Of a stretch of DNA of 27,839 nucleotides, positions 2,747 to 27,433 are shown one piece after another. This stretch comes from a phage. The stretch lies in NCBI GenBank assembly GCA_023859445.1, contig GCA_023859445.1_4337.1. One strand, given 5' to 3'. The notes beneath the pieces were generated by a model. That model worked only from the letters and a program-made list of their open reading frames with translations, was not told the DNA's origin and made no database searches. The number at the start of each line of letters is the position of its first letter. The stretch's first letter is position 1. A program made the position numbers and the translations under genes.

Positions 2747-2946
2747 TGGAAGAATTATTTGAAGAACTGAAACATCATGATTTCGAGGAAATATATTTCG
2801 TAGCTGAACGCTACGAGGTGCATCTGGCGGACGGTATAACGGTTATTACATCTACCAGCGAGCGAATGTTAAATAGCTTACGAGCAATACGAACGGCATC
2901 GAATCGTGATGCTTGTGCCGACGACTCTGAGGGAGGTTGCCGTTAA
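2743..2946 (+). CDS. Hypothetical small acidic protein (67 aa)
   Basis: ORF track; ATGA overlap with upstream gene. Confidence 0.5.
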   Translation: MMEELFEELKHHDFEEIYFVAERYEVHLADGITVITSTSERMLNSLRAIRTASNRDACADDSEGGCR

Positions 2947-3125
2947 TGCGAATCCGTATAACTGACCGCAGGCTTGTACGTATAACTGACCGCAGGCTTA
3001 TAGATTTCGGTATCTCGGTAGGTGATGTTTTTCCGGCGTTCAGCATCAACCATTATGGTTTTATGATTGAGTACAAATGGTCGTTATTGTTCGTGTATCG
3101 GGATGAATGTGAGGTTCTGGTATGA
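2946..3125 (+). CDS. Hypothetical small protein (59 aa) containing an in-frame tandem repeat
   Basis: ATG 2946 overlapping upstream stop (TAATG), SD GAGGGAGG 2929-2936; encodes RITDRRLV/RITDRRLI from the 24-bp repeat. Confidence 0.4.
   Translation: MRIRITDRRLVRITDRRLIDFGISVGDVFPAFSINHYGFMIEYKWSLLFVYRDECEVLV
2955..3002. repeat. 24-bp tandem direct repeat, two copies (23/24 identical)
   Basis: CGTATAACTGACCGCAGGCTTGTA (2955-2978) and CGTATAACTGACCGCAGGCTTATA (2979-3002). Confidence 0.9.
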
Positions 3126-3277
3126 GAGAAGCATTTGAACGGTGGGCTGTGGTCGAGGGTCTGCCGGTTAACAAGGGTTCAAAGAAAGAGTACCTGAACG
3201 TTAAGACGCGTCTCGCGTGGCGGGCGTGGAAAGCTGGTGTGCAATCCTTGATTGAAAGAGGTGTGAGGTATGGGTGA
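3122..3277 (+). CDS. Hypothetical small protein (51 aa)
   Basis: ATG 3122 overlapping upstream stop (ATGA), SD GAGG upstream; ends TGA 3275-3277, overlapping next start; under the track length cutoff. Confidence 0.4.
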   Translation: MREAFERWAVVEGLPVNKGSKKEYLNVKTRLAWRAWKAGVQSLIERGVRYG

Positions 3278-3470
3278 GTGGATTAAGTGTAGTGAGATGC
3301 TGCCGGGTAATGGGTATACGGATAAAGAGTTCCTGGTGTATGAAACGTTAAATAACGCAGTTCAGCACGATTATTACATAGTTCCTGATGACGGGAGAAA
3401 GCCTTTCTGGAATCACTACGATAAGTACGTGACGCACTGGATGCCGTTACCCGAGCCGCCAGAAGTGTGA
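3270..3470 (+). CDS. DUF551-like phage protein (66 aa)
   Basis: ORF track; C-terminal HWMPLPEPP motif typical of DUF551 small phage proteins (recalled from memory). Confidence 0.6.
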   Translation: MGEWIKCSEMLPGNGYTDKEFLVYETLNNAVQHDYYIVPDDGRKPFWNHYDKYVTHWMPLPEPPEV

Positions 3471-3604
3471 TGCTCAATAGTTTGGGATTTTACTGAGTGA
3501 CTTACGCTGCTACACAGCAGCGTACAACTTTAACTTAGTGTCGTCAAAAGGCGACACTTTCATCAAACGCAACAATCGAAGCGACTATTGCAGGAGATGC
3601 AACA

Positions 3605-3778
3605 ATGATTACTAAAGAACAGGCTGAACGACTAATCACGTTAATCGACACGATGGTTGATGCGAAAACCGATTTAGCAACGGCAACAGAGGAATCCGCT
3701 ACCTGGTCGCTTGAAGAAAGAGAGGCAGAAGCGGAAAGGGAGTTACTGGCGTTCATCGACTCTATAACACACCAATAA
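3605..3778 (+). CDS. Hypothetical small acidic protein (57 aa)
   Basis: ATG 3605 with SD AGGAGA about 8 nt upstream; codon count verified to TAA 3776-3778; not in track. Confidence 0.4.
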   Translation: MITKEQAERLITLIDTMVDAKTDLATATEESATWSLEEREAEAERELLAFIDSITHQ

Positions 3779-3785
3779 AATTTAC

Positions 3786-3815
3786 TTGCACACTAAGATA
3801 GAATAGGCTACTATT
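3786..3815 (+). promoter_or_regulatory. Conserved phage promoter, copy 2 (TTGCAC-N17-TACTAT; palindrome AATAGGCTACTATT)
   Basis: -35 3786-3791, -10 3809-3814, palindrome 3802-3815; near-identical to copy 1 over about 35 bp including downstream AAACGAGA. Confidence 0.5.
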
Positions 3816-3963
3816 CATTTACACAAACGAGAGGAGAGACAGAAGGTGAAAGATTATAGCGAAGTGACTTTAGGTGAGTTGCAGGACGGGTACGAAGATA
3901 TGTGCTACCCGTTCATCTGCGACGGGGATTACAACGGCGGCTATAACGGAGTGAGCGAAGAAT

Positions 3964-4392
3964 ATGAATAACAAAAACGAAGTATTCGAGTACTTGGTAG
4001 CGGCAATGCACCTAACGCTGGACGAACGTAAGGCACACAAGCAACAGTGCGAAGACCTGGCGCATGAGGTGCTGTCACTTAAGAATCAGTTACGTGATGC
4101 GTCAGCGCAGATTAAGGAGCTACATATGGCGCTGGTCAAAGCTACGGGCGACGCGGAGGCGTACAAACTTATCCGCAAACAGGAGCAATCCGGTTGCCGT
4201 AAAGAGGATACCCAGGAATGCGAGCATGATTGGGTGCTAGATGAAAAAGGGGACTACTTCATTTGCGCTAAATGCGGTAAGCAAGAATCGGAATTGAGCG
4301 ATTGCCAACACGCTAATACCGTCGGTTTGCGCAAAGGCTTTGCGCCGGGTTTTACTAAAAAGTGTCTTGATTGCGGGGCTAAACTGAAATGA
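3964..4392 (+). CDS. Coiled-coil protein with C-terminal CxxC...CxxC zinc-ribbon-like motif (142 aa)
   Basis: ORF track; CAKCG and CLDCG pairs near the C-terminus. Confidence 0.55.
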   Translation: MNNKNEVFEYLVAAMHLTLDERKAHKQQCEDLAHEVLSLKNQLRDASAQIKELHMALVKATGDAEAYKLIRKQEQSGCRKEDTQECEHDWVLDEKGDYFICAKCGKQESELSDCQHANTVGLRKGFAPGFTKKCLDCGAKLK

Positions 4393-4592
4393 CCAGCATC
4401 CTTTTTATCTGGGTACTGTCCGCAGGCCAGATGCAACTAGCGGCATCAGAAACGTTTTATTCGATGGAGGCGTGCCAGTCAGCGGCACGCGCCGCAGAGA
4501 ACGCGCACTTCCTGTTTCAGGGCGACAAGCCCAACGATTCGGAGGTACGCGCTATCTGCTCACCTAAGCGACTTGGTAAACAGGAGAAATAA
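4389..4592 (+). CDS. Hypothetical small protein with hydrophobic N-terminus (67 aa)
   Basis: ORF track; ATGA overlap with upstream gene. Confidence 0.45.
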   Translation: MTSILFIWVLSAGQMQLAASETFYSMEACQSAARAAENAHFLFQGDKPNDSEVRAICSPKRLGKQEK

Positions 4593-4885
4593 TGTCGTTA
4601 GCAACTGACATCCTGAAACGAAGCGGCCTTGCGCCGCTGTCGCCGAGAGCGAATACGCGTATACACAAGCGCCGCCGTAATGCACTGTACCCCGAGATTC
4701 AGGCCAGACGCAAAGCGGTCCGCGCCTGTGGATTCCAGAACGGGAAGGCTGTGAATCTCGGTGAGTTCAAAACACAGGAACGTGCAGCTATAGCTAATCG
4801 GTTATTTAATTACTGGAAATCGCTTGGATACGATGATATTCCGACGAAACCACAGAGACGACAATACATCTGGCGGCACAAATAA
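4592..4885 (+). CDS. Hypothetical basic protein (97 aa)
   Basis: ORF track; start overlaps upstream stop; Arg/Lys-rich. Confidence 0.5.
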   Translation: MSLATDILKRSGLAPLSPRANTRIHKRRRNALYPEIQARRKAVRACGFQNGKAVNLGEFKTQERAAIANRLFNYWKSLGYDDIPTKPQRRQYIWRHK

Positions 4886-4915
4886 ACAACTATTAGGATA
4901 ATTCCTACCCGTGGT

Positions 4916-4955
4916 ATCCTCCAGTTACTGCATACTTAATACGCACCTGGAGGAT
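4916..4955 (+). promoter_or_regulatory. Hairpin sequestering the SD of the first lysis gene
   Basis: Perfect 9-bp inverted repeat ATCCTCCAG (4916-4924) / CTGGAGGAT (4947-4955), 22-nt loop; right arm contains SD GGAGGA (4949-4954), 6 nt before TTG 4961. Confidence 0.45.
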
Positions 4956-13140: not shown

Positions 13141-13144
13141 TAAA

Positions 13145-13169
13145 AGGCCCCTTTCGGGGCCTTATTTTT
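13145..13169. terminator. Bidirectional intrinsic terminator
   Basis: Stem AGGCCCC/GGGGCCT, loop TTTC, flanked by AAAA upstream and TTATTTTT downstream; lies between convergent genes ending at 13140 (+) and 13172 (-). Confidence 0.75.
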
Positions 13170-13171
13170 CA

Positions 13172-13273
13172 TCAAAGTTCACCATTCCCGCTATCTGCGT
13201 CCTCGACCCCGCTAACAGCCCACACAAACAATCCTAAATTAACCAGTAACACAAATGAAATTGCTACCATCAT
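13172..13273 (-). CDS. Small single-pass membrane peptide (33 aa: MMVAISFVLLVNLGLFVWAVSGVEDADSGNGEL)
   Basis: Minus-strand ATGATG at 13273/13270, SD GGAGG 5 nt upstream, own copy of the conserved promoter upstream and the bidirectional terminator downstream; hydrophobic core with acidic tail. Confidence 0.5.
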   Translation of the reverse strand: MMVAISFVLLVNLGLFVWAVSGVEDADSGNGEL

Positions 13274-13298
13274 AACCACCTCCACTATACGTTTACTT

Positions 13299-13328
13299 AA
13301 TAGTACCCTATTATGTTGGTGTCTGCAA
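13299..13328 (-). promoter_or_regulatory. Conserved phage promoter, copy 3 (TTGCAG-N17-TACTAT, minus strand)
   Basis: -35 complement of 13323-13328, -10 complement of 13300-13305; palindrome AATAGTACCCTATT at 13299-13312. Confidence 0.5.
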
Positions 13329-14855: not shown

Positions 14856-15824
14856 ATGGCTCTGTCAGATATGAAGGTTTATAACGACGATATCGTCGGT
14901 ACCACTATCGAACTGCTTGGTCAGAAAACTGACCAGTTTAACGCGGCCTCCGGTGGCGCAATTGTACTGTCTACTGCCTCATGGCGCGGTGATTTCTCCC
15001 GTGAGTCTTTCTTTAACCAGATTGCCTCCGCTAAACGCCGCGTTGACCGTTACGCCGCTATCGCGTCTCAGGCAGCTACCGCGCTGACTCAGGGCGAGCA
15101 TGTAGGCGTTAAAGTCGCTGGCGGCTTCGGACCGGTACTGTTCGAGCCTGCGCAAATGACCTGGCTTAACGAAGACCCGGCAAGCGCGATTCGTGCTATT
15201 TCCGAAGGGTTCTCTGACGCACTGTTAGCTGACCAGCTTAACACCGCTGTTGGTGCCGCCGTTGCCGCGGTATCAGGTCAGACTGCACTGGTTAACAATG
15301 TATCCGCGACCGCTGGCTTGTCCCTGAACGTGCTGAACAACAGCCACGCTAAATTCGGCGACCAGTCTCAGCTGCTGATTACCGACATCATGACTGGTGC
15401 TGCTTATCACACGCTGGTAGATAAAGCGCTGACTAACGCAAACCAGCTGTTCGTTGCCGGTAACGTTATGGTTGTCGATGTTCTCGGCAAGCGTTACGTA
15501 ATCTCTGACATTCCTGCGCTGTACGAGGCCGGTGCTCCGAACAAGACTAAGGTCCTGTCCGTAGTTGCAAACGGCATCATCGTTGATAATGCTTCTGATA
15601 TTATCAGCAACATTGATACCAGCAACGGTAACACCCGCATCCAGACCACCTGGCAGGCGGATTACAGCTTCGGCCTGAAACTGAAAGGCTATAGCTGGGA
15701 TGTCGCCAACGGCGGTAAATCTCCGCTGGACGCAGAACTGTTCACCGCGACCAACTGGGACAAAGCTGTTGCCGAGAGCAAACACACCCTCGGTACTCTG
15801 GCAATCGCCGACGCGGACAAGTGA
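14856..15824 (+). CDS. Major capsid protein (putative), 322 aa
   Basis: ORF track; position after scaffold and before a strong terminator; assignment by synteny. Confidence 0.7.
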   Translation: MALSDMKVYNDDIVGTTIELLGQKTDQFNAASGGAIVLSTASWRGDFSRESFFNQIASAKRRVDRYAAIASQAATALTQGEHVGVKVAGGFGPVLFEPAQMTWLNEDPASAIRAISEGFSDALLADQLNTAVGAAVAAVSGQTALVNNVSATAGLSLNVLNNSHAKFGDQSQLLITDIMTGAAYHTLVDKALTNANQLFVAGNVMVVDVLGKRYVISDIPALYEAGAPNKTKVLSVVANGIIVDNASDIISNIDTSNGNTRIQTTWQADYSFGLKLKGYSWDVANGGKSPLDAELFTATNWDKAVAESKHTLGTLAIADADK

Positions 15825-15845
15825 TACAGTTAGTGGTAAAAACAA

Positions 15846-15865
15846 AGGGGCTACGGCCCCTTTTT
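15846..15865 (+). terminator. Intrinsic terminator after major capsid gene
   Basis: Stem AGGGGC/GCCCCT with TACG loop, followed by TTTTT (15861-15865). Confidence 0.7.
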
Positions 15866-15881
15866 ACTAGGAGAAATTAAA

Positions 15882-16049
15882 GTGGAAATTAAATATGTAC
15901 CAATGCCGATTACCATCGAGCAGAAGCGAGAATATAACCGTCGGGGGTTCCGTGTAGTAGATGCTCGTTTCGCACCAGAAGGTGCCGTGGTAGAATCGGC
16001 TAAAGAAGAGACACCGCGCCGCCAGCGCCGGGCGAAATCAGAGGAATAA
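15882..16049 (+). CDS. Small basic protein (55 aa; GTG start, in-frame ATG at 15903)
   Basis: SD AGGAG 15869-15873; codons counted to TAA 16047-16049; below track cutoff. Confidence 0.35.
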   Translation: MEIKYVPMPITIEQKREYNRRGFRVVDARFAPEGAVVESAKEETPRRQRRAKSEE

Positions 16050-16052
16050 TTT

Positions 16053-16565
16053 ATGCCGCTAATCGTGGAAGATGGGTCGATAGTACCTGATGCCGACAGT
16101 TACGTTAGTCTGGCCGACGCCCGCGCGTTAGCGGCTAATTACGGTCTTGTGTTGCCGGCAGACGATACCGCCGCAGAGGTGGCCCTGCGCAACGGTGCTA
16201 CTTATGTTGGGCTTGCAGAACCTCAGATGTGCGGGCGTCGCGTATCCGCTGAACAGTCTCTGGCGTACCCACGTACAGGAACAACACTAAACGGCTTCAC
16301 CGTAGCGGATAATGTTATCCCGTCGCAGTTAATCCGGGCACAAGTAATCGCTGCGGTTACGTATGGTGCGGGTACTGATGTTCGGGCTAACTCAGATGGG
16401 CGTTCCGTGCAGACTGAGCGTGTTGAGGGTGCTGTGACAGTGACATACTTCAACAACGGCAACAGTGGCGCCACAACCGCTATTACCGCTGCGGACGACG
16501 CATTACGCCCGTTACTGTGTGGTGGTCTTAACAATGGCTTCTCATTTAACGTGTACCGGGGTTAA
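16053..16565 (+). CDS. Head completion / head-tail connector protein (putative), 170 aa
   Basis: ORF track; position in the connector block; no specific motif recognised. Confidence 0.45.
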   Translation: MPLIVEDGSIVPDADSYVSLADARALAANYGLVLPADDTAAEVALRNGATYVGLAEPQMCGRRVSAEQSLAYPRTGTTLNGFTVADNVIPSQLIRAQVIAAVTYGAGTDVRANSDGRSVQTERVEGAVTVTYFNNGNSGATTAITAADDALRPLLCGGLNNGFSFNVYRG

Positions 16566-16567
16566 AA

Positions 16568-17182
16568 ATGGCAAAGACCAAAACAGAGATGTTTGCCCTT
16601 ATCGGCGCTAACCTTCCCGATAACACCACCGGGCTTATCACACCCGAGAAGTTACGCGAAGTAATGACGCAGATGGCAGATTCGCCTATCTATGCCACTC
16701 CCGGGGTGAAAGAGGTTGAAGTTCTCCGTGCCGCGTCCACTGTAATACAAGCACCATCCGCAGTGAACACAGCATTGCAGTTAACTTTCGGTCCCGCGCA
16801 GGGTAGCGCATCTGACCCGGTAATGATTAATGCAGCGGGTCTGGTTACGTTCAACACTGCAGGCAACTACGCCGTTCGCATCAAGTTACAGGCGGGGCGC
16901 ACTGGAGCGAGCGGGACGTCCGTCCTGTTATCGCGCATTCTTCTTAACGGCGCACAGTACGGCTCGCCAGCAGCTACTAAACTGGTAAGTGCTGATACTA
17001 CAATCCCGATTGAATCTCGCGTCGTTATTAACACAACCGCAGGCCAGACGTTTGCCGTTCAGATTATGCGGGATAGTGCCGGGACCAACTTCGGCGGCGT
17101 ATATCCGCAAGTTGCTACCGTAACCGCATGGGGTACAGCACCATCCGCATTACTGGTTATTTCGAGACTGGAGGCCGCCTGA
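16568..17182 (+). CDS. Virion structural protein (putative), 204 aa
   Basis: ORF track; tightly packed after previous gene; function by position only. Confidence 0.45.
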   Translation: MAKTKTEMFALIGANLPDNTTGLITPEKLREVMTQMADSPIYATPGVKEVEVLRAASTVIQAPSAVNTALQLTFGPAQGSASDPVMINAAGLVTFNTAGNYAVRIKLQAGRTGASGTSVLLSRILLNGAQYGSPAATKLVSADTTIPIESRVVINTTAGQTFAVQIMRDSAGTNFGGVYPQVATVTAWGTAPSALLVISRLEAA

Positions 17183-17276
17183 TGAATAAGTTCACATGTG
17201 GTGTAGTTTTTGGTTTTCTTACCGCGGTAGTCTTGCACAGTTACGGTGTTCTTTTGACGCTGCAAGAGGTGCTAAA

Positions 17277-17636
17277 ATGAGCACCGCTTTCAGTAAACGT
17301 ATGCAAGGCGTCGGTACACGCCTGCTAACCAAATTCGGTAGCACGGTATCTCTGATTCGCGCTGGTTCAAAAGTATGGGATGAAGTTCTCGGTGAGTACG
17401 TCTGGTCTGCGGATGAAGTGATGCCGTTGAAGGCCGTTCCGGTTCCGGTAAACGCGGGACTGGTAAACGGTACGACGATTCAGGCTGGCGACATGATTGT
17501 TAAAGCCGATTACAGCGTCGTTCCGAAGATGGAAGACAAGGTGCAATTCGGCGGCGAGCAATGGTCCATCGTAGCTATTGAGAAGAAGATGGTTAACGAT
17601 GACGTCGTGGCGTACTTTATTCAGGTGAGAAAATGA
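17277..17636 (+). CDS. Head-tail joining protein (putative), 119 aa
   Basis: ATG 17277 with SD AAGAGGTG, in frame with track ORF 17196-17636 whose N-terminal extension looks spurious. Confidence 0.45.
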   Translation: MSTAFSKRMQGVGTRLLTKFGSTVSLIRAGSKVWDEVLGEYVWSADEVMPLKAVPVPVNAGLVNGTTIQAGDMIVKADYSVVPKMEDKVQFGGEQWSIVAIEKKMVNDDVVAYFIQVRK

Positions 17637-18028
17637 GTTTCGCGCTCGATGTCTCTAAGTTCGTGGAAAAGGCGAAGAAGAACCCTGAGAAGGTGATGCG
17701 TCAGGTGTCTATCAAGCTGTTTTCCGCTATTATAAAGGCGAGTCCGGTAGACACGGGCCGCTTTCGTATGAACTGGATGGCATCTGGCGGTACTCCTGCT
17801 TCCGGGATTACGGACGCTACGGATAAATCAGGAAACACAGCAACCGGAAACGCTACGAGTTTCGTGCTGAAAGCCGCTGACTGGCATGAGTTCACGCTGA
17901 CAAATAATCTGCCGTATGCGCAACGGCTGGAGTATGGTTGGTCGCAACAGGCGCCAGCCGGGGTTGTCAGGACTAATGTGTCTCGCTTCCAGCAACTCAT
18001 TAACGAAGAAGCCAACAAGGTGAAATGA
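17633..18028 (+). CDS. HK97 gp10-like neck / tail-completion protein (131 aa)
   Basis: ORF track; motif PVDTGRFRMNW resembles the conserved DTG...W signature of the HK97 gp10 family (from memory). Confidence 0.55.
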   Translation: MSFALDVSKFVEKAKKNPEKVMRQVSIKLFSAIIKASPVDTGRFRMNWMASGGTPASGITDATDKSGNTATGNATSFVLKAADWHEFTLTNNLPYAQRLEYGWSQQAPAGVVRTNVSRFQQLINEEANKVK

Positions 18029-18441
18029 TGGGCTACTTTGAGGACTTAACAAAAGCGTTCGATGTTCCGCTGGTAGCCTTCGGAACCGCCAACGGCATCA
18101 AGGTCGCGCTTGAAAACATCGACGCGCCGACGTCAACCGATACGCCATATCTGGCAAGTTACATGTTACTGGCGGATACCGAGCAAGCAGATTTGTTCTT
18201 CACGGAACAACGCGCGGGTGTTTATCAGGTCGACATTAACTACGCATCGGTGAAAGGTAGCGCGCCAATCAATAAAATGGCAGACTTACTTAACACGGCA
18301 TTCAAAGCAGGTAAGTCATTTTCTCGTAACGACATCTGCGCCGAGGTTCAATCGGTTAGCCTGGGGCCGCTGATTGTAGAAAACGGATGGGCCAAACGAC
18401 CATTGTCAATTAACTTTATTGCATTCACCAAGAGGCTGTGA
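18025..18441 (+). CDS. Tail terminator / tail completion protein (putative), 138 aa
   Basis: ORF track; ATGA overlap; located immediately before the major tail gene. Confidence 0.4.
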   Translation: MMGYFEDLTKAFDVPLVAFGTANGIKVALENIDAPTSTDTPYLASYMLLADTEQADLFFTEQRAGVYQVDINYASVKGSAPINKMADLLNTAFKAGKSFSRNDICAEVQSVSLGPLIVENGWAKRPLSINFIAFTKRL

Positions 18442-18443
18442 AT

Positions 18444-19610
18444 ATGGCTACAACTCCTTTTAAGGGCGCGAATACTGCGCAATTCTATGTGGCAGAAACT
18501 ACCCCTGGCGTAACACCGACTAACCCGGTCTGGTCGCCATTGCGTAACACAGGTGGCGTTCCTGCCATTACCCGCGACACGCTGACCTCCAACGAACTGG
18601 ACGGCAGCCGTGAAACTACATCCATCCGCACCGGTAACAAACAGGTTAGCGGTGAATACGCGATCGAGCTTAGCTCGAAAAGCCAGGATGACTGGCTGGC
18701 TGGTGCTTTAGGCTCTACGTGGCAATCCGGTGTTTCCCTGTCCAGTCTGTCGATTACCGTCGCACCCGCGGGCAAGACGTTCACACGCGCTACCGGCAGT
18801 TTTATCACTGACGGAGTTGGGGTAGGCGACCTGATTGCATTTACCGATTTAACAGGCGATAACGCAAAACCATTTATTGTTACTGCAGTAACGGCTACGG
18901 TTGTTACCGGTGCGGGCATCCAACACACCCTGACCACCGAGACAAAAACTAGTAAGGCTAAAACCGGCGACACGCTGGAAACCGGTAACACGTGTAAGAC
19001 GTTCTCTATCCTTACCTGGTACAAAGGCCAGTGCGGCGGTACTGACGCGTACACGTTAACCAAAGGCGTGGAAGTTTCTGGTTTTACCATCGAACAGGCT
19101 GTTAACGCGATGGTAACTGGCAGCTTCCCATTCATCGGTCGCAGTCAGGAGATTCTCACTACGCCGCCGACCGGTTCCAACTTCTCATCTGTTACTTTTG
19201 GTGATGAGCCGTTCTCTTCGGTTGACGTTTCCGTGTTCGATGGCTCTACGCCGTTGCGTTGTGATAGCCTTACCATCACCAACGACAACAGCGCGTCCGC
19301 ACAGTTCGAACTCGGCAACACTAACGTAGCGTTTGTGGAGCGTAGCCGAGCAGCTAACACCTTCTCCATCTCCGGTAAGCTGTACGACATGGCGATGATT
19401 CAGAAGTTTATCAACGAGCAGCAGGTGGAGATTAACTCTATTCTGGCGGGGGTAAACGGGGCTATGTCTTTCAGTTTGAAACGTGCAGAACTTACGGCGG
19501 TTACACCTGAGATTGGAGGACCTGAGTCAATCACTCAGTCTATTGAAGGCCAGGCTACTGGCAACCAGTACCAGTCGTCTATTGTTATTCAGCGTATCAC
19601 ATACGCATAA
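18444..19610 (+). CDS. Major tail (tube) protein (putative), 389 aa
   Basis: ATG 18444 (SD AAGAGG 8 nt upstream) within track ORF 18438-19610; followed by strong terminator; by synteny. Confidence 0.55.
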   Translation: MATTPFKGANTAQFYVAETTPGVTPTNPVWSPLRNTGGVPAITRDTLTSNELDGSRETTSIRTGNKQVSGEYAIELSSKSQDDWLAGALGSTWQSGVSLSSLSITVAPAGKTFTRATGSFITDGVGVGDLIAFTDLTGDNAKPFIVTAVTATVVTGAGIQHTLTTETKTSKAKTGDTLETGNTCKTFSILTWYKGQCGGTDAYTLTKGVEVSGFTIEQAVNAMVTGSFPFIGRSQEILTTPPTGSNFSSVTFGDEPFSSVDVSVFDGSTPLRCDSLTITNDNSASAQFELGNTNVAFVERSRAANTFSISGKLYDMAMIQKFINEQQVEINSILAGVNGAMSFSLKRAELTAVTPEIGGPESITQSIEGQATGNQYQSSIVIQRITYA

Positions 19611-19614: not shown

Positions 19615-19637
19615 AAGGCCCCGTTTGGGGCCTTTTT
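19615..19637. terminator. Bidirectional intrinsic terminator between convergent major tail gene and minus-strand operon
   Basis: Stem AAGGCCCC/GGGGCCTT, loop GTTT, flanked by AAAACT and TTTTT; stop of minus gene (19639) sits in the T-tract. Confidence 0.75.
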
Positions 19638-19638: not shown

Positions 19639-20193
19639 TTACAAACCTAATCTTAAAGCAATGCCTATAGCGTTCGATTTAACGTAACCCGGTATGATGT
19701 AGGTGTCATAATCTTTTACACCATCAATATCGTACAGGTAACCGCGGCTGTCCCCTTCAAACGTATGGCCGTCTCTGTGCAAGCGGACGATTCTCACATC
19801 ATGCCACGCGGCAACGATAGGGGCTACTTCGCTGGCGAACCCGCCATCAGACACCACAAAAACTTCGTCGCCGTCGGGCAAGTTTCCGGCAAGATACTTA
19901 CCGAAATAATCATCACCGAATACCGGTTTAATGAATTGCTCGGAAATGGCAATCATGAACTGACGCCGAGACAACCCGTTAAGGAAACCCTCTGGCTTTT
20001 CTTTCCGCGCCCGGTCGTCGTAGCCGTCGAGAAACTCGCGGTAAGCATCCTGGCCTAACGCAGCCATAGCAATATTGAACATCGGATTCTTGAAACTGGC
20101 GACACCCTTCGCAAAGCCCATTTCTACCAGCGCCCTAGCAAGTGTGTCTTTCCCGCAGCCCGCAGGACCATTAAGAATAATTACCTTAGCCAT
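19639..20193 (-). CDS. P-loop nucleotide kinase (dNMP kinase-like; possibly polynucleotide 5'-kinase), 184 aa
   Basis: ORF track; N-terminal Walker A LNGPAGCGKDT, similar in pattern to phage dNMP kinase GKDT P-loops. Confidence 0.65.
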   Translation of the reverse strand: MAKVIILNGPAGCGKDTLARALVEMGFAKGVASFKNPMFNIAMAALGQDAYREFLDGYDDRARKEKPEGFLNGLSRRQFMIAISEQFIKPVFGDDYFGKYLAGNLPDGDEVFVVSDGGFASEVAPIVAAWHDVRIVRLHRDGHTFEGDSRGYLYDIDGVKDYDTYIIPGYVKSNAIGIALRLGL

Positions 20194-20678
20194 TATTTAT
20201 CACTCCCATGTGGTTTTAAGTGTGTAGAGTTCCCGTTACAGTCGTATTCAGTAACTGCGTGAGTGGTTATGCCGAGTTCGCGGAAATGCTTTATTACCGC
20301 TGGAGAGTCGTCGAATGCACACAAGATTCTCTCCGGCCCAATAGCACGCAACACCTCTTCTTTAATTACGATGTCTTTTCTGTTGTCGTGTTTGCTGCGC
20401 ATGATTAACTGATAAAATTCGACGCGGTGGCGCTGCAACCACATTCTGGTTTCTTTTTCCGCGTCATCACTACGGCCTGTTAAGATAATAACGGCATAGC
20501 GACGATTAAGGGCGTTACACAGTTCGATGTTATCTTTAATGGGTGCATCGTCTTTGCACGCCATGTTAAATGGTTTCCACGCCCAGGTTTCGCCGTAGTT
20601 ATCTTTCGGCAGCAGGTGTAAACGATGAGTACCATCTGCCAATGTCCCGTCTAAATCGAAAATCACAATATCTTTCAT
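20193..20678 (-). CDS. HAD-superfamily phosphatase (polynucleotide 3'-phosphatase / nucleotidase-like), 161 aa
   Basis: ORF track; HAD motif I FDLDGTL, motif II ILTGRS, C-terminal FDDS; pattern resembles the T4 Pnk phosphatase domain as recalled from memory. Confidence 0.65.
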   Translation of the reverse strand: MKDIVIFDLDGTLADGTHRLHLLPKDNYGETWAWKPFNMACKDDAPIKDNIELCNALNRRYAVIILTGRSDDAEKETRMWLQRHRVEFYQLIMRSKHDNRKDIVIKEEVLRAIGPERILCAFDDSPAVIKHFRELGITTHAVTEYDCNGNSTHLKPHGSDK

Positions 20679-21805
20679 CCAAGCATCTCCGGTGAAATAG
20701 TTAAACGTGCGACCTCGCCATATTCGGCGCTATAAGTAATTACGTTTGCACTGCGGCCCGACATCCACCCACCGCGGGAGGCATATGCATCTTTAGCCGC
20801 GAGAGTGCGGTGTTGCTCAACAATCATGTTACGGCTTTCTATAATCTTTTGGTGGTGCAGGTGACCCACGTGGGCGTAGCTGTAAACACTCTCGCCGAAC
20901 GCTTTGCGGAACTTGGCGATCATAACCGGTTCGATAGCGTCGAATCGTGCTTTATGCCCATGATGGAAGAACAGCGTCGTTTTGCCGTGTTGCACCATCT
21001 TGTAAACATCCGGCGACGTATCGACGAACACACGCGGCTCATTGTCGTACAGCGTACTAAACATCTCAGCTAACCAAATCATTCCGCTTTCGTCGTGGTT
21101 ACCTTGCACGATAAGCAAGCGAACATTTTTATGTTTAACGAGAGCCATATCAATGACACGGCGGACCATACGAATCATGTAGCGTACAAGTTTCTGATAG
21201 CGGGTGTCAGCGTCAAGAACATGACCACTGGCAGGTGTAACGGCGTCCAGACTATCGAAATGCGCAAGGTCGCCCAGCAGATTAATAACTCCTGTTCCGG
21301 CATCCGGTGCTTTCTGGAACGCTGCGTCGAACCAGCGGGAGAACAGGTCTTCCGCAATCTTCATGTCCCAGTCGTCGCCGCTCTCGTCAGCCCAGGCCAG
21401 CATACCGAGATGGAAATCAGACACAGTGTAAAGGTTGAGTAGCTTGTCGTCTCGTTTGGCGCGAACGGCTTTAACAGGTGCAACTGGTGTAATCTCCGAC
21501 TTCATGCCTTCGATTACGGCTTTCATCAATTCAACCTGACGTTCGGCATCGGTGTCGGTCTTAACCCATTGCAACTTGGTGTTGCCAAACTCATCCACCA
21601 GTGATGACGTTCCTTTAATCTTGTAGCCGTCCGGCACAAGGTGACTAACGTCGCGCCCGTGGCCTACGCCTTTCTTAGCCAGCTTCGCTTTACGGATACG
21701 GATAACGCGGTCAGAGATGCCGTATTTACGGGCGATGTCGATATTCTTCATACCGGCGTTCAATTCTTCCTGTAACTGTTCGTCGGTTATTTTCTTCCTG
21801 GCCAT
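20675..21805 (-). CDS. Calcineurin-like metallophosphoesterase with N-terminal HTH-like domain (376 aa)
   Basis: ORF track; phosphoesterase motifs D-x-H (SDFHLG), GD..D (GDLAHFD), GNHDE, HHGH, GHLHH; N-terminal segment NIDIARKYGISDRVIRIRKAKL looks helix-turn-helix. Confidence 0.7.
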   Translation of the reverse strand: MARKKITDEQLQEELNAGMKNIDIARKYGISDRVIRIRKAKLAKKGVGHGRDVSHLVPDGYKIKGTSSLVDEFGNTKLQWVKTDTDAERQVELMKAVIEGMKSEITPVAPVKAVRAKRDDKLLNLYTVSDFHLGMLAWADESGDDWDMKIAEDLFSRWFDAAFQKAPDAGTGVINLLGDLAHFDSLDAVTPASGHVLDADTRYQKLVRYMIRMVRRVIDMALVKHKNVRLLIVQGNHDESGMIWLAEMFSTLYDNEPRVFVDTSPDVYKMVQHGKTTLFFHHGHKARFDAIEPVMIAKFRKAFGESVYSYAHVGHLHHQKIIESRNMIVEQHRTLAAKDAYASRGGWMSGRSANVITYSAEYGEVARLTISPEMLG

Positions 21806-21849: not shown

Positions 21850-22176
21850 CTATTTACTTTCCACTCCCGCCGCCCAAGCTAGAGAGACGATTTGTAAGCG
21901 AGTAGCCACCAATGCGCTGCTGTAGCCTGGTGATTTCATGTCCACAGAACTCATGACAAGGCCTGTTACAAGGTCGAAGCTAACCCCTGCTGCTCCTGCT
22001 GAATACGCGGCCTCACATTCTTTAATAACCGCATTTTTAAACATTTTTTGCGCGGCTACAGGGGCGCTTTCTATTAAACCCGCAGTTATTAATGGGGTTT
22101 CAGAATAAATCTGCTCACAAGTGGAACCTACCGCAGTAAAAGATATGAAACCTAAAGCTAAGATTAATGTACGCAT
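21850..22176 (-). CDS. Small secreted/periplasmic protein with N-terminal signal peptide (108 aa)
   Basis: ORF track; MRTLILALGFISFTAVGSTCEQ looks like a cleavable signal peptide (no canonical lipobox); SD AAGGAA; first gene after conserved promoter copy 4. Confidence 0.5.
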   Translation of the reverse strand: MRTLILALGFISFTAVGSTCEQIYSETPLITAGLIESAPVAAQKMFKNAVIKECEAAYSAGAAGVSFDLVTGLVMSSVDMKSPGYSSALVATRLQIVSLAWAAGVESK

Positions 22177-22217: not shown

Positions 22218-22247
22218 AATAGTACCCTATTATATTTGGGTGCGCAA
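22218..22247 (-). promoter_or_regulatory. Conserved phage promoter, copy 4 (TTGCGC-N17-TACTAT, minus strand)
   Basis: -35 complement of 22242-22247, -10 complement of 22219-22224, palindrome AATAGTACCCTATT 22218-22231; drives the minus-strand accessory operon. Confidence 0.5.
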
Positions 22248-22355: not shown

Positions 22356-22772
22356 ATGAAACTGTCAGACTTCTACTTTGCGTCCAAACACGCAGCAGGA
22401 ACCAAGATGCCGATTCTGTTGCCAGACGGCAGCGATTCCGGCGAATGGCTACAGGTCATGGGGCCAGATTGCGACGACTCCATCGCAGCTGCTAAAGACT
22501 TCATCTCTGCTTATCGCGACATCCTGGACAACCTGAAGCCGCTTGACGCTGAGTGCCGCGAGAAAGGCGACTGGGCTAGATATAACACTGAGTTGAACAG
22601 TGAACTGGCGAAGCTGAATGATGCGCTTGCCGCCGTTGTAGTGATAGGCTGGTCCTTCGACGAGAAGTTCACTAAGAAGGCGCTTGTTAAACTACTCAAG
22701 GAATACAAAGGCTTAGGTGGTGCAGTGGCCCAGCATCACGCAGAGAGCCGCAAAGCGCTGTCGGTAAAGTAG
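22356..22772 (+). CDS. Tail assembly chaperone (putative), 138 aa
   Basis: ORF track; SD AAAGGA; acidic protein immediately upstream of tape measure region; by synteny. Confidence 0.5.
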   Translation: MKLSDFYFASKHAAGTKMPILLPDGSDSGEWLQVMGPDCDDSIAAAKDFISAYRDILDNLKPLDAECREKGDWARYNTELNSELAKLNDALAAVVVIGWSFDEKFTKKALVKLLKEYKGLGGAVAQHHAESRKALSVK

Positions 22773-22804: not shown

Positions 22805-23122
22805 GTGATACGTCAGAAGCGCCGGGAGTTCGACTCCATCGCGGACGGTCACAAAGCGGCTCTGACGGCGATGGGATTACCAGTCCCGCCAGAGCCGGAA
22901 GAAGACCCTCCAGAATGCCCGGCTGATATGATGCGAATCATGGACAAATACTACGCATTGAAGTTTGTAAGTCGCAATAACGTACTAATACCGAGGGAGA
23001 TGCTTCAATACCATCACCTGACAGCATATGCTGAACTACACAAGCAACCGTTCACGCTATTGGAGGTGGATTTAATCATGGGCCTTGACGCATTGTTCGA
23101 AGGCCGTAACGAGGATGAATAG
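22805..23122 (+). CDS. Second tail-chaperone-region ORF in the -1 frame (105 aa; independent gene or frameshift extension)
   Basis: ORF track (GTG start, weak SD); its frame is open from 22691 and overlaps the end of the upstream gene by about 80 nt; ends 2 nt before the tape measure start. Confidence 0.4.
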   Translation: MIRQKRREFDSIADGHKAALTAMGLPVPPEPEEDPPECPADMMRIMDKYYALKFVSRNNVLIPREMLQYHHLTAYAELHKQPFTLLEVDLIMGLDALFEGRNEDE

Positions 23123-23123
23123 A

Positions 23124-25121
23124 ATGGCAGATACCGCAAGTTTAATCGTAAAGGTACAGGCTACCGGGGCAGAGCAGGCCGCCAAGCAGCTTGATAGCCT
23201 GAGCAGTTCCGCGGGTAAGGCGGATACCAGTACCAAGAAGATGACTGACACCACATCGGCAGCGGCACCGAAGATGAACGCGCTCAAAGCGTCCATCGGC
23301 AACGCTGGATATCAGGTACAGGACTTCATCGTACAGATTCAGGGCGGGCAATCGGCCCTCACCGCGTTCACCCAGCAGGGTAGCCAGTTAGTATCAGCGT
23401 TTAACCCGATTGCAGGTACTGTGTTGACGCTGGCTACGGTTATCGGCGGCGCGCTATACGCTTCGATGTCCGACGCGAAGGACACCGCAAAGGAACTGGA
23501 AGACGCGACCAAGTTCCTCGATGATGCACTGAACGAAGCAACGCCGGGCGTGTATGAAATGAACGACGCACTGGAGAAGCTCGACGCTATCGGTGCTACC
23601 ACGGCGGAGAAGATGGCATTTCTCAACAAGGCACTGGAAGCTACTGCCGTGCAAGCCAACGCTACCGCTGACAAGATTGTAGAAGCAATCGACAAGGTGA
23701 CTAAGGCGCAGTCCATCTTCCAGAAGCTTACGACCAACCTTGCCGCGTCGCAGATAGCGCAGGGCGGTAATGCTGCTGGGGCGGTGGCGTTCCAGTACGA
23801 AGCAGCAGCAGAGGCCGCTGGACTTACCGCAAAAGAGATGCGTAGTATTGAGGTCGCACAGAAAGCTATCGCCGCTGGAGTTCCGGGCGCTCGTGAAGGA
23901 CTGATTGCGTACCTCGACGGCATCAAAGCTAAGACGCCGGAAGCGCAAATCGAGCTTAACAAGCTGCGTAATGAACTGAACTACCTAGGCGTAGAGGAGA
24001 AGACACGCGCCGCTGAACGTAAGGGCGTAGAACAGGCTGAGAAGACATACGAGAAGGACAAAGCGGACCGGGCGCAGAAGGAAATCGACCGCCAGAATCG
24101 AATCAGTGCTGCCGCCGTGAAACGTGCGTCCGCGCAGGCACGAGCAGAGGCTAAAGCGCAGGAGAGCGCACAGAAAGCCGCTGACCAGTTCATCGCGCAA
24201 CTCGATACCAACACAGGTACCGAGTTAGACAAAATCGATGCTAAAGAGAAGCAGAAGCTAGCTAAGTTGCAGGAATACCATGACAAGCAACTGGTAAGCG
24301 ACGCTGAGTATGAGCAGTCGAAAAGCGACATCATGGCCGAGTTTCAGGCACAGCGGGACGCCCTCTACAACAACGCCGATGTGTATTTACAGAAGTTACA
24401 AGCGCTTGGCGGCACTGAGTACGAGGAAATCCAACGGCAGAATGACGCCAAACTCAAGCAACTGGATGACTTCCTGAAACAGAAGCTGATTAGCGAAGAA
24501 CAGTACGCCAACGCAGTTACCGCGCTGAATGAGCAAAGCAACATTGCGCAGGCTAACGCTACAGCCAACGCGTTCGGAAGCATGGCTGCCGATGCTAAAT
24601 CCGCATTGGGTGAAACGTCCGCCGCGTATAAAGCGTTCGCAATCACCCAGGCGACCATCGCCACCTACACCGCAGCTATAGAGGCGTACAAGTCCACGGC
24701 AGCTATCCCGATTGTTGGCCCGGCGCTAGCCCCGGTTGCCGCCGGTCTGGCAGTTGCCGCAGGTGTGGCTAACATCGCCAAGATTAGCGGTGCGCGTGAG
24801 CAGGGCGGGCAGATGAACGCAGGCGGTAGCTATCTTGTCGGGGAACGTGGTCCAGAGATTATTAAGATGGGTGGTGCCGGTCGTGCAAGTAATGCAAGCC
24901 AGACGCGGGCTGAGCTGTCAGGCAGTGGTAACAGCGGCCCGGCTAACATCAGCATCATTAACAACACTAGTGCACAAATCGGCAACGTATCTACTGAACA
25001 GGATGATGAAGGGCGTCTGCGCATCATTATCTCTGAGCAGGTGGCTTCTGAGCTAATGAACAGCAACAGTCGGATTAGCAAGGCCCGCAAGTCTACGCGA
25101 AATGCACCCGGCTTTAAGTGA
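23124..25121 (+). CDS. Tape measure protein (666 aa)
   Basis: ATG 23124 (SD GAGG 9 nt upstream) within track ORF 23085-25121; long Ala/Gln/Lys-rich helical protein with hydrophobic Gly/Ala-rich segment near the C-terminus. Confidence 0.8.
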   Translation: MADTASLIVKVQATGAEQAAKQLDSLSSSAGKADTSTKKMTDTTSAAAPKMNALKASIGNAGYQVQDFIVQIQGGQSALTAFTQQGSQLVSAFNPIAGTVLTLATVIGGALYASMSDAKDTAKELEDATKFLDDALNEATPGVYEMNDALEKLDAIGATTAEKMAFLNKALEATAVQANATADKIVEAIDKVTKAQSIFQKLTTNLAASQIAQGGNAAGAVAFQYEAAAEAAGLTAKEMRSIEVAQKAIAAGVPGAREGLIAYLDGIKAKTPEAQIELNKLRNELNYLGVEEKTRAAERKGVEQAEKTYEKDKADRAQKEIDRQNRISAAAVKRASAQARAEAKAQESAQKAADQFIAQLDTNTGTELDKIDAKEKQKLAKLQEYHDKQLVSDAEYEQSKSDIMAEFQAQRDALYNNADVYLQKLQALGGTEYEEIQRQNDAKLKQLDDFLKQKLISEEQYANAVTALNEQSNIAQANATANAFGSMAADAKSALGETSAAYKAFAITQATIATYTAAIEAYKSTAAIPIVGPALAPVAAGLAVAAGVANIAKISGAREQGGQMNAGGSYLVGERGPEIIKMGGAGRASNASQTRAELSGSGNSGPANISIINNTSAQIGNVSTEQDDEGRLRIIISEQVASELMNSNSRISKARKSTRNAPGFK

Positions 25122-25129: not shown

Positions 25130-25151
25130 AGGCCCTCAGGGCCTTTATTTT
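25130..25151. terminator. Bidirectional intrinsic terminator after tape measure gene
   Basis: Stem AGGCCC/GGGCCT, short loop, then TTATTTT; stop of the minus-strand gene (25145) lies within it. Confidence 0.7.
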
Positions 25152-25903
25152 CTCCAGCCTCTGGGTTTATGCCCCTCGTTACACAATTTGGTAAACTCCG
25201 CGATGATTGCGGTATCGGCTACCATCCACTCACTTGCTCCGTCAAAGTTGCTTAGCTCCGCTGATACGTGTGCGCGGTGGAAATATCGCTCCAACATACG
25301 GCAACGAGCACCATTAGCGTCTTGGTATACGCTAAGCACATGGAACTCGAATGGGGTGGCACGCTCTAGCTGGGCAAGGCGTTGCTTTAACTTGTTAGTG
25401 ATACCTATTTTGAGATATTTACCACATGCGGAAAGAAGCCCGTAAATATATCCCGGTTTGTTAGAATTGTAGCCGTGCTTGGCACATGAGGGGCATCCAT
25501 GCCCATGCACTAAAATGTTATTAACTCCCGTGACAAACACCCCGTGGTCCTTACAGACCCGTATCGCTTTTGAATTTTTGTTAAGGTACGCCCCGCCCTC
25601 AAAACCCACGAACGTATATCGAACATCCGCTGATTTTATTTGCTCAATAACCGCATTTGTATTCTTGCGGTACGCAACAGACGCGGCCTCCCTGCTGCAT
25701 TTCATGCACCCGTGACCTCCGGCGATGCTACGGGCTATAGCCGCAAATTCGCCGTGTTCTGGGCAAGTAATTCTAATCTTACTGGTCGAGTTGATATACT
25801 CGCTACCATCATAACTTGGGGATATTGTGTACTTCCCGCCGTGTTTCTTTAAATCTAACTCGACCATTTTCTTCCGTTCTTCCCAACCAATTTTAGCGCT
25901 CAT
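25145..25903 (-). CDS. Homing-endonuclease-like protein (GIY-YIG / T5orf172-MUG113-like C-terminal domain with two N-terminal Cys/His zinc-ribbon repeats), 252 aa
   Basis: ORF track; repeats CPEHGEF...GHGCMKC and CKDHGVF...GHGCPSC; C-terminal GYIYGLL...KIGIT...R pattern resembles GIY-YIG-type domains (from memory); opposite strand inside the tail module. Confidence 0.55.
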   Translation of the reverse strand: MSAKIGWEERKKMVELDLKKHGGKYTISPSYDGSEYINSTSKIRITCPEHGEFAAIARSIAGGHGCMKCSREAASVAYRKNTNAVIEQIKSADVRYTFVGFEGGAYLNKNSKAIRVCKDHGVFVTGVNNILVHGHGCPSCAKHGYNSNKPGYIYGLLSACGKYLKIGITNKLKQRLAQLERATPFEFHVLSVYQDANGARCRMLERYFHRAHVSAELSNFDGASEWMVADTAIIAEFTKLCNEGHKPRGWRK

Positions 25904-25923: not shown

Positions 25924-25958
25924 AATAGCATACTATTCAACCATATGGTATCTGTCAA
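25924..25958 (-). promoter_or_regulatory. Promoter for the endonuclease-like gene (TTGACA-17-TAGTAT) carrying the palindrome AATAGCATACTATT
   Basis: -35 complement of 25953-25958, -10 complement of 25930-25935; palindrome 25924-25937 (copy 5 of the family). Confidence 0.5.
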
Positions 25959-26032: not shown

Positions 26033-27433
26033 ATGGGTGACTTATATTTCCCACGTAGCCTTAAGCCAATTGTATCGAAAGGCTACTCAATGACCAGACG
26101 TAACAACGTCTGGAGTGTAGATTTAGCCGGTGGCGGGGTGCGTCAGGGCCGTGACACGTATTACGACGTGTTCCCTGTTAGCGTAACCCTGATTACATCC
26201 GCAATGGGGCGACAGGCGTTTCTGTCGTTCCTCGAAAAAGTAGACGGCGGTGCGTCAAGTTTCTGGATGGCGCACGACTTCGGCATGGGCATCGAAGATT
26301 ATCAGGTAACCATTACGTCCACTATCGCCGAGTCCACCGAAGACGGGATTAACTGGACAATCACCTTCACGGCAACCGCCGAGAAATCGCCGTTCCAGGA
26401 CCTTGAGAACCAGTGCCTGATTAACAATCTGCCAGATTTGTACGGCTGTTACGGGGATTGTCTGGGTAGTTTCCTGAAAATATACGCGAACTATGAGACG
26501 ACATTCCCTCGCATCTGGAGCGACGAAGGTCCTGCCGGATATCCGCCGATTAACATGCTGGCATCTACGCTTGATAGCCGCATTGTTTATGAGGGGCCGC
26601 AGGTTTATTACATCAACCACAACGGTAATCTTGTGCAGTCCGCCGTCAATGAATGGCCTCTTACGTTTATTGACGGGGTTGCTGTCGGGCGTGTGCCGCC
26701 AGAGGTATCAGTAACTAACAGATTCCTATATTCAAGCAATTTCTCTTCGTCAAACTGGAACAAAGGTTTGGTTAGTGTATCAGTATCTGAAACAGGTGTT
26801 TTAACAGCCGCGGGCACGTACGACGTAACTGCTACCGCCACAAGCGGTAACCACCTAATAAACCAGACTGTAGATGTTAGCGTCGGTGTTGGCGACAAGG
26901 TGACTTTTAGTTTCTTCGCAAAAGCAAACGGATACAATTTCATACGGATGTACGTGCGAGAACTTCCTACAGCATTAGGCTCAGCAGTTGTAGATTTGCG
27001 GGATGGTAGCATTTATTCCGGCCCAGGCGGTACAGATGTAACCGACGTAGGCGGAGGGTGGTTCCGAATATCGGAGACGGTCAACGCGACAGAAGATAAA
27101 ACAATGAGCATACGGATGGACGCATGGATATATTCAGACGGAGTTACCGGGACATTTACGGGGGATGGCGTTTCAGGGATTAAATTATCCGCGGCTACTG
27201 TAGAGGTAAACCAAAATACAACATCACCAATAATTACGGCGGCGTCTCCTGTAACACGCCCCGCGGCATCGGCAAAAGTAGTAATGAACGGCGCAACAAG
27301 CATCGGCATTACCTACTCCGACGGCTCTGTGGTAGACGTTCAGGCTGTTGACGGTTACGCCACCATCCCACAGGCGGATTCTGCGTGGGGTAGTAAATAC
27401 GTCACCCGTATTGATTTTAATGTGGACGGTTAA
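26033..27433 (+). CDS. Minor tail protein, lambda gpM-like N-terminal domain with long C-terminal extension (466 aa)
   Basis: ORF track; N-terminal pattern SVTL...FLSFLEKVDGGASSFWM resembles lambda gpM (recalled); first tail-tip gene after tape measure. Confidence 0.5.
   Translation: MGDLYFPRSLKPIVSKGYSMTRRNNVWSVDLAGGGVRQGRDTYYDVFPVSVTLITSAMGRQAFLSFLEKVDGGASSFWMAHDFGMGIEDYQVTITSTIAESTEDGINWTITFTATAEKSPFQDLENQCLINNLPDLYGCYGDCLGSFLKIYANYETTFPRIWSDEGPAGYPPINMLASTLDSRIVYEGPQVYYINHNGNLVQSAVNEWPLTFIDGVAVGRVPPEVSVTNRFLYSSNFSSSNWNKGLVSVSVSETGVLTAAGTYDVTATATSGNHLINQTVDVSVGVGDKVTFSFFAKANGYNFIRMYVRELPTALGSAVVDLRDGSIYSGPGGTDVTDVGGGWFRISETVNATEDKTMSIRMDAWIYSDGVTGTFTGDGVSGIKLSAATVEVNQNTTSPIITAASPVTRPAASAKVVMNGATSIGITYSDGSVVDVQAVDGYATIPQADSAWGSKYVTRIDFNVDG

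Follow-up and report, generated by a model that had tools for sequence, protein, structure and literature searches.

A common phage family of helix-turn-helix metallophosphoesterases, remotely related to T5 A1, may provide a DNA-tethered nuclease

We analysed a 27,839-nucleotide stretch of phage DNA (NCBI GenBank assembly GCA_023859445.1, contig GCA_023859445.1_4337.1), referred to here as the window, in which a gene at 20675..21805 encodes a metallophosphoesterase with an N-terminal helix-turn-helix (HTH). The product is most likely, with a probability that we put at about 0.5, a stand-alone, DNA-tethered binuclear metallophosphoesterase acting as a divalent-metal-dependent DNase; that it serves specifically in the degradation of host DNA, by analogy with protein A1 of phage T5, is a tentative suggestion. 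In sequence the catalytic domain is far from every characterised phosphoesterase; its relationship to the C-terminal domain of A1 appears to be specific, though remote.

The gene and its product

The listing of open reading frames (ORFs) showed a single ORF at this place, as the original prediction had reported. It lies on the minus strand, starts with ATG, encodes 376 amino acids and has an AGGA Shine-Dalgarno sequence 7–8 nt 5' of the start codon. In DNA sequence the region was 99.6 % identical to MirsaeidiM_Esher4, an Escherichia phage, and its identity to phage K1G (Kagunavirus, Guernseyvirinae) was ~97 %; the window belongs to a Kagunavirus, a K1G-like coliphage. The ORF is the counterpart of K1G gp22 and, like its relatives, gp22 is annotated as 'DNA repair exonuclease'. 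The protein matched PHROG 704 with an E-value of 1.5e-167, residues 4–375 being aligned to positions 2–389 of the 390 in the profile. Three parts can be distinguished, all on the minus strand: a three-helix HTH of the resolvase, LuxR/GerE or sigma-70 region 4 type (codons 8–44; 21674..21784), a connector made of a beta-hairpin and a long helix (codons 61–104; 21494..21625) and a binuclear metallophosphoesterase core with motifs I–V (codons 119–376; 20678..21451).

The catalytic domain

The five metallophosphoesterase motifs (DxH, GD, GNH[DE], H and GHxH), comprising seven metal-ligand or catalytic residues, are all present. The complete set, which the original prediction had claimed, is read from the translation as SD130FH132LG, G178D179LAH182FD, G235N236H237DE, FHH282GH and G314H315LH317H. 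We examined the conservation of these residues in clusters formed at 50 % identity, using 142 full-length representatives. All 142 had D130, H132, D179, N236, H237 and H282; 141 had H317, 138 had the motif-II histidine, His182, and 134 had H315, which was Asp in 7 others. The motifs were invariant or nearly so also in 61 diverse relatives. Since the ligands are retained in 142 of the 142 representatives, the active site is predicted to be catalytically intact, and a degenerate, purely regulatory domain is excluded on these grounds.

The core has the beta-alpha-beta-alpha-beta sandwich of calcineurin-like metallophosphoesterases, and the family sequence is very divergent. In Pfam searches the window protein stayed below the gathering scores of Metallophos (22.0 bits; cutoff 27) and Metallophos_2 (18.8 bits; cutoff 21.5), a PF00149 match at E ≤ 0.01 was obtained for only 15 of the 61 relatives, and a search of the PDB with the single sequence of the window protein returned nothing relevant. 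The only PDB sequence match of the catalytic profile was T. maritima Mre11, with a non-significant E-value of 1.3 (0.6–2.4 across searches). DxHLG, GD-phi-phi-H, GNHD and GHxH are in register with this Mre11, and the Mre11-type motif II, GD-x-x-H, is present, GDLAH182 aligning to GDLLH; the functional meaning of the histidine is that known from Mre11. Foldseek comparison with the PDB gave Mre11, Rv0805, DP1, SMPDL3A and YfcE, all at E-values of 1e-8 to 1e-6, and so did not discriminate between them. By fold, the closest counterparts of the core are the 3'-5' exonuclease DP1 and Mre11/SbcD.

The original prediction had suggested a nucleic-acid-directed phosphoesterase, possibly of the Mre11/SbcD type. 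Mre11/SbcD proper was ruled out because the profile similarity is non-significant, a C-terminal capping domain is missing (in the AlphaFold2 model the chain stops at the end of the core) and a Rad50/SbcC partner is missing. Comparison with E. coli SbcD gave a probability of 2.6–3.6 % in hhalign and a hidden Markov model (HMM) score of 1.1 bits. No Rad50/SbcC-like gene was found in the window, where its absence next to the gene had already been noticed, in ~40 diverse related loci or in the complete genomes of K1G, AG11 and BF9. The nucleic-acid direction itself is favoured by the HTH fold and by T5 A1, the closest relative with data, which drives host DNA degradation.

The N-terminal helix-turn-helix and the connector

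The HTH-like N-terminus, recognised earlier from the letters alone, was confirmed by AlphaFold2 and by profile matches to GerE and sigma region 4. The full model, built on a 61-sequence alignment, had a mean predicted local distance difference test score (pLDDT) of 93.4 and a predicted template modelling score (pTM) of 0.80; a model of residues 1–118 alone had a mean pLDDT of 87.5 and contained the same elements. In both models the HTH helices comprise residues 8–16, 21–28 and 32–44 (pLDDT 92–95), and the three/four-helix fold superposes on known DNA-binding domains. Family profiles matched GerE, DesR, RhlR, NarL and sigma-H region 4 with E-values of about 1e-3, the best individual members reaching 1.5e-9 with Sigma70_r4_2 and 2.4e-8 with GerE, and the window protein itself remained below the Pfam gathering score (GerE, 15.7 bits; cutoff 23.5). 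The mean net charge of the recognition helix in 31 diverse members was +4.2.

In the AlphaFold2 model the HTH is followed by two strands (61–70 and 76–85), a helix (87–104) and the catalytic core (119–376). The connector is conserved in 146 of 150 representatives, and its residues G74 and W80 hardly vary. Members whose N-terminus is longer have HTHs of other types or in tandem, which suggests selection for nucleic-acid binding itself across the family. Homologues without an HTH keep the hairpin and helix, and that of a Campylobacter phage matches from residue 65 onwards. Since the HTHs vary and the HTH-less homologues retain the hairpin-helix, we regard the HTH as an add-on module with predicted DNA binding, and the hairpin-helix as a probable part of the catalytic unit.

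An HTH-less member of 317 residues (PHROG 704 match, 9e-103) is encoded by Campylobacter phage F357, a T4-like myovirus, at 3998–4951 of its locus. Its gene, annotated 'recombination endonuclease', directly follows a DNA ligase gene, lies near that of a Holliday-junction resolvase and has no gp46/Rad50 neighbour.

Distribution of the family

The fusion of an HTH with a phosphoesterase had been called unusual. In sequence searches it proved instead to be the standard layout of a common and already catalogued phage family. Homologues were found by tblastn in 2,051 phage records; the full-length architecture was encoded in 1,959 of these, and the carriers include T1 as well as Dhillonvirus, Webervirus, Vibrio, Rhodobacter and Campylobacter phages. 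When 1.84 billion cluster representatives were scanned with HMMER, 4,630 clusters were obtained at E ≤ 1e-3. An N-terminal region of at least 90 residues was present in 144 of the 150 best representatives, the other six being fragments, and 123 of the 150 matched the HTH part of the N-terminal profile.

Hundreds of deposited proteins are 97–99 % identical to the window protein. Their public names, and those of the family, include 'winged helix-turn-helix domain-containing protein', 'HTH luxR-type domain-containing protein', 'sigma-70 region 4 domain-containing protein', 'winged HTH domain protein', 'metallophosphoesterase' and 'DNA repair exonuclease'. As a database entry the gene is ordinary; it is a core gene of Drexlerviridae (including T1) and Guernseyvirinae, and the family occurs in ~2,000 sequenced phages. 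In a pangenome study of Drexlerviridae an exonuclease-holin-endolysin-spanin module was persistent in 508 of 522 genomes (PMC13164509). The PHROG 704 family is already known and catalogued, with a function that is predicted only, and we found no paper in the literature that characterises it.

The remote relationship to phage T5 A1

The C-terminal half of T5 A1 shows the motif order of the window family, namely GDIH, HDVHD, SNHD-LAL-S-R-WL, HGH, GHTH and a terminal IITY strand, and these positions are invariant in a 30-sequence alignment of the A1 family. The spacing from motif II to motif III is 56 residues in A1 and 57 in the window family, and NHD-x3-S-x-WL, HGH, GHxH and the terminal ITY strand are signatures common to both. 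A full-length profile-profile comparison aligned motifs III–V and the ITY strand with an E-value of 7e-4. With profiles trimmed to the catalytic domains, hhalign gave a probability of 58.5 % (E 9.6e-5), the cross-domain controls reaching 0.1–0.2 %. Reciprocal HMM scores between the PHROG 704 and A1 families were 14.5–17.3 bits, compared with at most 6.9 bits for SbcD, YfcE, CpdA, LpxH, PrpA and lambda PP and at most 4.1 bits for shuffled sequences.

The likeness extends to the N-terminus, where many A1 relatives have an HTH: in A1-family members ~45 % identical to T5 A1 it is at residues 3–48 and matches HTH_23, HTH_38, the resolvase HTH_7 and GerE, and its class and position are those seen in the window protein. 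We interpret the relationship as remote homology with shared architecture and not as membership of the A1 family. Of the profile and fold comparisons, from which the original prediction had expected a family assignment, hhalign against single paralogues and Foldseek against the PDB were non-discriminating; the trimmed profiles favour T5 A1.

A1, a predicted metallophosphatase, is reported to be necessary and sufficient for host DNA degradation, and its reported structural neighbours are double-strand break (DSB)-repair and proofreading nucleases (2026 preprint, 10.64898/2026.04.02.716235). It is a pre-early, membrane-associated protein whose partner is A2, and the second step of DNA transfer also requires it (10.1101/866236).

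Proposed function and alternatives

In the mechanism that we propose, the HTH would hold the enzyme on duplex DNA, and a Mre11-like active site, including the motif-II His182, would cut phosphodiester bonds with no need of a Rad50-type ATPase. The analogy with A1 suggests host DNA breakdown or DNA-end processing as the likeliest role, early or midway in infection. The 3'-phosphatase and the deoxynucleoside monophosphate (dNMP) kinase-like protein that are translationally coupled to it could clean 3'-phosphate ends and/or return dNMPs to the synthesis of deoxynucleoside triphosphates. The genomic context counted in favour of a nuclease is the orientation of the gene, which is that of the K1G replication module (in K1G the entire module lies on the same strand), the position of the F357 homologue after ligase and resolvase, the status of a core gene in 508 of 522 Drexlerviridae, where PNK and dNMP kinase genes most often follow (PMC13164509), and the recurrence of this gene order in 5 distant IMG/VR loci.

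A bolder scheme, which taken as a whole we hold to be possible but doubtful, is that in T1-like, Jersey/Kaguna-like, Dhillon-like and many marine siphoviruses PHROG 704 would take the place of A1 as the host-chromosome DNase. It would be a Rad50-independent Mre11/DP1-like nuclease aimed by its HTH, with the Pnkp-type phosphatase and the dNMP kinase as a plug-in nucleotide-salvage module, and PHROG 704 and T5 A1 would descend from a single ancient lineage of phage 'HTH + metallophosphoesterase' DNases, as two branches that the catalogues list separately.

Several points weigh against a DNase. The literature contains no demonstrated nuclease activity for any PHROG 704 member, and in vitro nuclease activity of T5 A1 is unpublished (10.1101/866236; 10.64898/2026.04.02.716235). 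Full-length hhalign with A1 reached a probability of only 26 %, and no cross-match was seen between the window protein and PHROG 1745 or between A1 and PHROG 704, PHROGs keeping the two families separate. Against SbcD, LpxH, YfcE, CpdA, PrpA and lambda PP, hhalign gave less than 15 % throughout and did not discriminate. In addition, the HAD phosphatase and kinase genes next to the phosphoesterase cannot define its core function, because this pair is absent from most genomes that have the gene; we considered the pair in such a role and rejected it as optional.

The enzyme might act on small molecules instead, as a phosphodiesterase or pyrophosphatase of nucleotides, cyclic (oligo)nucleotides or nucleotide-sugars, which would remodel the nucleotide pool or destroy second messengers of host immunity and leave the HTH a role in localisation or regulation only; we regard this as unlikely. 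Rather more improbable is the healing of RNA or DNA ends, in which the enzyme would work, after the manner of bacterial Pnkp, as a 3'-phosphatase or 2',3'-cyclic phosphodiesterase and, with the HAD protein and the kinase, would mend tRNAs or nicked nucleic acid after cleavage by nucleases of the host defence. In its favour, end healing by Clostridium thermocellum Pnkp relies on a metallophosphoesterase domain, the gene shows translational coupling to those of a T4 Pnkp/Pnkp1-type HAD phosphatase and a P-loop kinase, and the order of the three genes recurs in Drexlerviridae (PMC13164509) and in distant loci. The original prediction had also named a Pnkp-type 2',3'-phosphatase, an option with no direct support beyond these optional neighbours. 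A Ser/Thr/Tyr phosphatase of the lambda PPase/PPP type acting on host or phage phosphoproteins may be considered, since the lambda enzyme belongs to the same superfamily and its gene, ninI, likewise comes shortly before Q and the lysis genes. This is very improbable: the motifs GDxHG, GDxVDRG and GNHE of these enzymes were not found in the window protein, and its closest fold similarity is not to them. Homology to PPP enzymes alone, behind an N-terminus that lacks a DNA-binding fold, is the outcome that would have spoken against a nucleic-acid-directed enzyme, and it was not encountered; the predicted N-terminus is an HTH.

The protein could also be a transcription regulator whose HTH binds phage promoters, as an activator of late genes or a repressor of early ones, the phosphoesterase being a sensor or second activity. 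The HTH is of the LuxR/GerE/sigma region 4 class, a weak match to PHROG 836 'late transcriptional activator' was obtained (E 8.6e-4), and the cassette promoter contains an operator-like palindrome common to several phage promoters. In 508 of 522 genomes of Drexlerviridae the gene directly precedes the lysis cassette (PMC13164509), and in Dhillonvirus it is found just upstream of terS/terL. However, this position varies between phage families, and catalytic residues invariant in 142 of 142 members are not those of a pseudoenzyme. The HTH is the least conserved part of the protein (mean column identity 33 %, against 57 % for the core) and is dispensable in homologues such as Campylobacter F357_148. 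Moreover, the palindrome does not track the HTH in BF9 and AG11, and AG11 encodes small HTH proteins apart from the phosphoesterase, of which one is at the locus of two of the K1G palindrome copies. We consider a regulator about as improbable as end healing.

For the DNase that we favour, the link to A1 offers a concrete and cheap hypothesis on the enzyme of host DNA degradation in common therapeutic and contaminant phages. It also has a bearing on bacterial defences that sense degradation products, e.g. Metis and PUA-Cal-HAD.

The cassette and its accessory genes

The phosphoesterase gene is the second of four in a minus-strand cassette that encodes, in order, a 108-residue protein (21850..22176), the HTH-phosphoesterase, a HAD phosphatase of 161 residues (20193..20678) and a P-loop kinase of 184 residues (19639..20193). 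Genes 2–4 overlap stop-to-start, the start of the HAD gene and the stop of the phosphoesterase gene sharing 4 nt. A probable promoter, with TATAAT at 22234->22229 overlapping one copy of the palindrome described below, lies at 22218..22234 (minus strand). The cassette is flanked by two plus-strand genes, for the tail tube (18438–19610; Phage_tube_2) and for a tail assembly chaperone (22356–22772), and a bidirectional intrinsic terminator at 19615..19634, with an 8-bp stem of which 6 pairs are GC and T-runs on both strands, would serve the tail-tube gene and the end of the cassette.

The HAD protein is of the 3'-phosphatase type of T4 Pnkp and Pnkp1 (Pfam HAD_PNKP, 6.7e-20; PDB, Pnkp1 1.7e-6 and T4 polynucleotide kinase (PNK) 1.8e-4). 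The kinase is dNMP-kinase-like, matching PHROG 139 'deoxynucleoside monophosphate kinase' at 2.3e-44, and its Pfam and PDB matches were to the P-loop only. Where present, the pair is directly downstream of the phosphoesterase gene in the same order, and the order phosphoesterase-HAD-kinase recurs in 5 distant IMG/VR loci. In Drexlerviridae, PNK and dNMP kinase are the commonest genes just downstream (PMC13164509). The pair was absent from about half of the Kagunavirus loci with at least 94 % identity, in which both genes were present or absent together, and also from T1, AG11, BF9 and the examined Vibrio and Rhodobacter phages; two distant loci had the HAD gene and no kinase gene. The pair thus behaves, to judge from its occurrence, as a mobile accessory cassette. 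A search for a conserved partner in ~40 diverse related loci found none, the endolysin, HNH and HAD/kinase genes being sporadic.

The 108-residue protein has an N-terminal hydrophobic, signal-like segment and matched PHROG 14165 (2e-24). Its slot is variable among close loci, only some of which have the 108-residue version; in relatives the slot holds 'superinfection immunity' genes, and K1G has there a gene of 63 codons annotated 'immunity to superinfection'.

In several distant phages we noticed a DNA methyltransferase gene within one to four genes of the phosphoesterase homologue: in T1 Dam is four genes upstream, in RcPutin the gene is two downstream and in Ruegeria phage V18 it is adjacent. 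Should the enzyme degrade DNA, methylation might have a part in self-protection.

The promoter palindrome and other features of the window

The palindrome AATAG-N4-CTATT (core ATAATAGGGTACTATT) is present in 5–6 copies per genome, where about 0.03–0.15 would be expected. The copies are at 2508–2521, 3802–3815, 13299–13312, 22218–22231 and 25924–25937 in the window, at 14752, 27637, 31191, 33340, 37059 and 38382 in K1G, where a homologous copy lies upstream of the cassette, and at 14512, 25613, 29823, 36012 and 37219 in AG11. Five of the six K1G copies are intergenic, the one at 27637 being at the 3' end of gp37 (27629–27928). Read on the opposite strand, K1G copies show TTGACA-17-TATAGT, the spacer of which contains the palindrome, and two of the AG11 copies are inside annotated RpoD promoters. 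The element resembles a family of Guernseyvirinae promoters in which an operator-like site is embedded.

The HTH of the phosphoesterase was considered as the binder of this site. The palindrome is absent from Dhillonvirus BF9 despite a similar recognition helix and is shared by AG11 despite changes at 7 of the 14 helix positions. Because there is no co-variation with the recognition helix and other small HTH proteins are available, this assignment was rejected as unsupported.

Two of the palindrome copies lie in a stretch of ~1.8 kb (2186–3964) that has no ORF of at least 90 codons and that contains a perfect or near-perfect 24-nt tandem duplication (2955–2978 and 2979–3002); the K1G counterpart (36452–38611) is likewise unannotated. 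Another copy belongs to a minus-strand promoter-like repeat at 13290–13328, ~120 nt from a strong GC-rich hairpin with T-runs (13142–13169). Repeat and hairpin are situated in the gap between the head-decoration and spanin genes, and the elements at 13142–13328 could yield a short transcript, either antisense or non-coding.

The tail assembly chaperone is divided between a pair of plus-strand ORFs, 22356–22772 and 22805–23122, which match the N- and C-terminal halves of PHROG 15027. This split is consistent with a programmed frameshift (G/GT), as in the joined coding sequence annotated in K1G. At 25145–25903, on the minus strand, an ORF of 252 codons matched PHROG 681 (6e-51) and resembles HNH/homing endonucleases. 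It is opposite in strand to the tape-measure gene (23085–25121) and the next tail gene (26033–27433), between which it is located. The position is empty in K1G, whose tape measure (15664–17937) is longer than the one of 678 residues found here. The HNH-like ORF is probably a mobile insertion.

Comparison with known systems

Mre11, SbcD and T4 gp47 have a capping domain and a Rad50/SbcC partner, whereas the window enzyme has an N-terminal HTH instead. DP1, the 3'-5' proofreading exonuclease of archaeal PolD, shares only 11 % identity with the window protein; it has an OB fold and works inside the DP1-DP2 polymerase, whereas the window enzyme is stand-alone behind an HTH and, unlike DP1-DP2, the phage polymerase is one annotated gene (in K1G). 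The nuclease MPE of Pseudomonas putida (6NVO/6NVP) is likewise a stand-alone, Mn-dependent metallophosphoesterase DNA nuclease, and its name is borne by one public annotation, from a metagenome-assembled genome, of a protein 98 % identical to ours. We found no close similarity to MPE in sequence or fold, the profile match being weak (E 0.56).

The host defences Metis (MisA/MisB) and PUA-Cal-HAD pair a calcineurin-like phosphoesterase with a HAD phosphatase, as the window does, and their biology revolves around phage-induced genome degradation and dNMPs. They differ in acting on nucleotides or NAD and in having PUA sensor domains, whereas the window HAD protein is of the Pnkp type; no cassette protein was matched by PADLOC, and no sequence link to Metis or PUA-Cal-HAD was found.

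T5 A1 (PHROG 1745, 'DNA transfer protein') and the window protein are both phage-encoded, Rad50-independent metallophosphoesterases, and DSB-repair and proofreading nucleases are the structural neighbours of both. A1 is larger, with 556 residues, and its middle region (~240 residues, about 50–290) has no counterpart in the window protein. Finally, T5 A1 is paired with Dmp, a HAD-type nucleotide phosphatase that is weakly and locally similar to the window HAD protein (E 1e-4).

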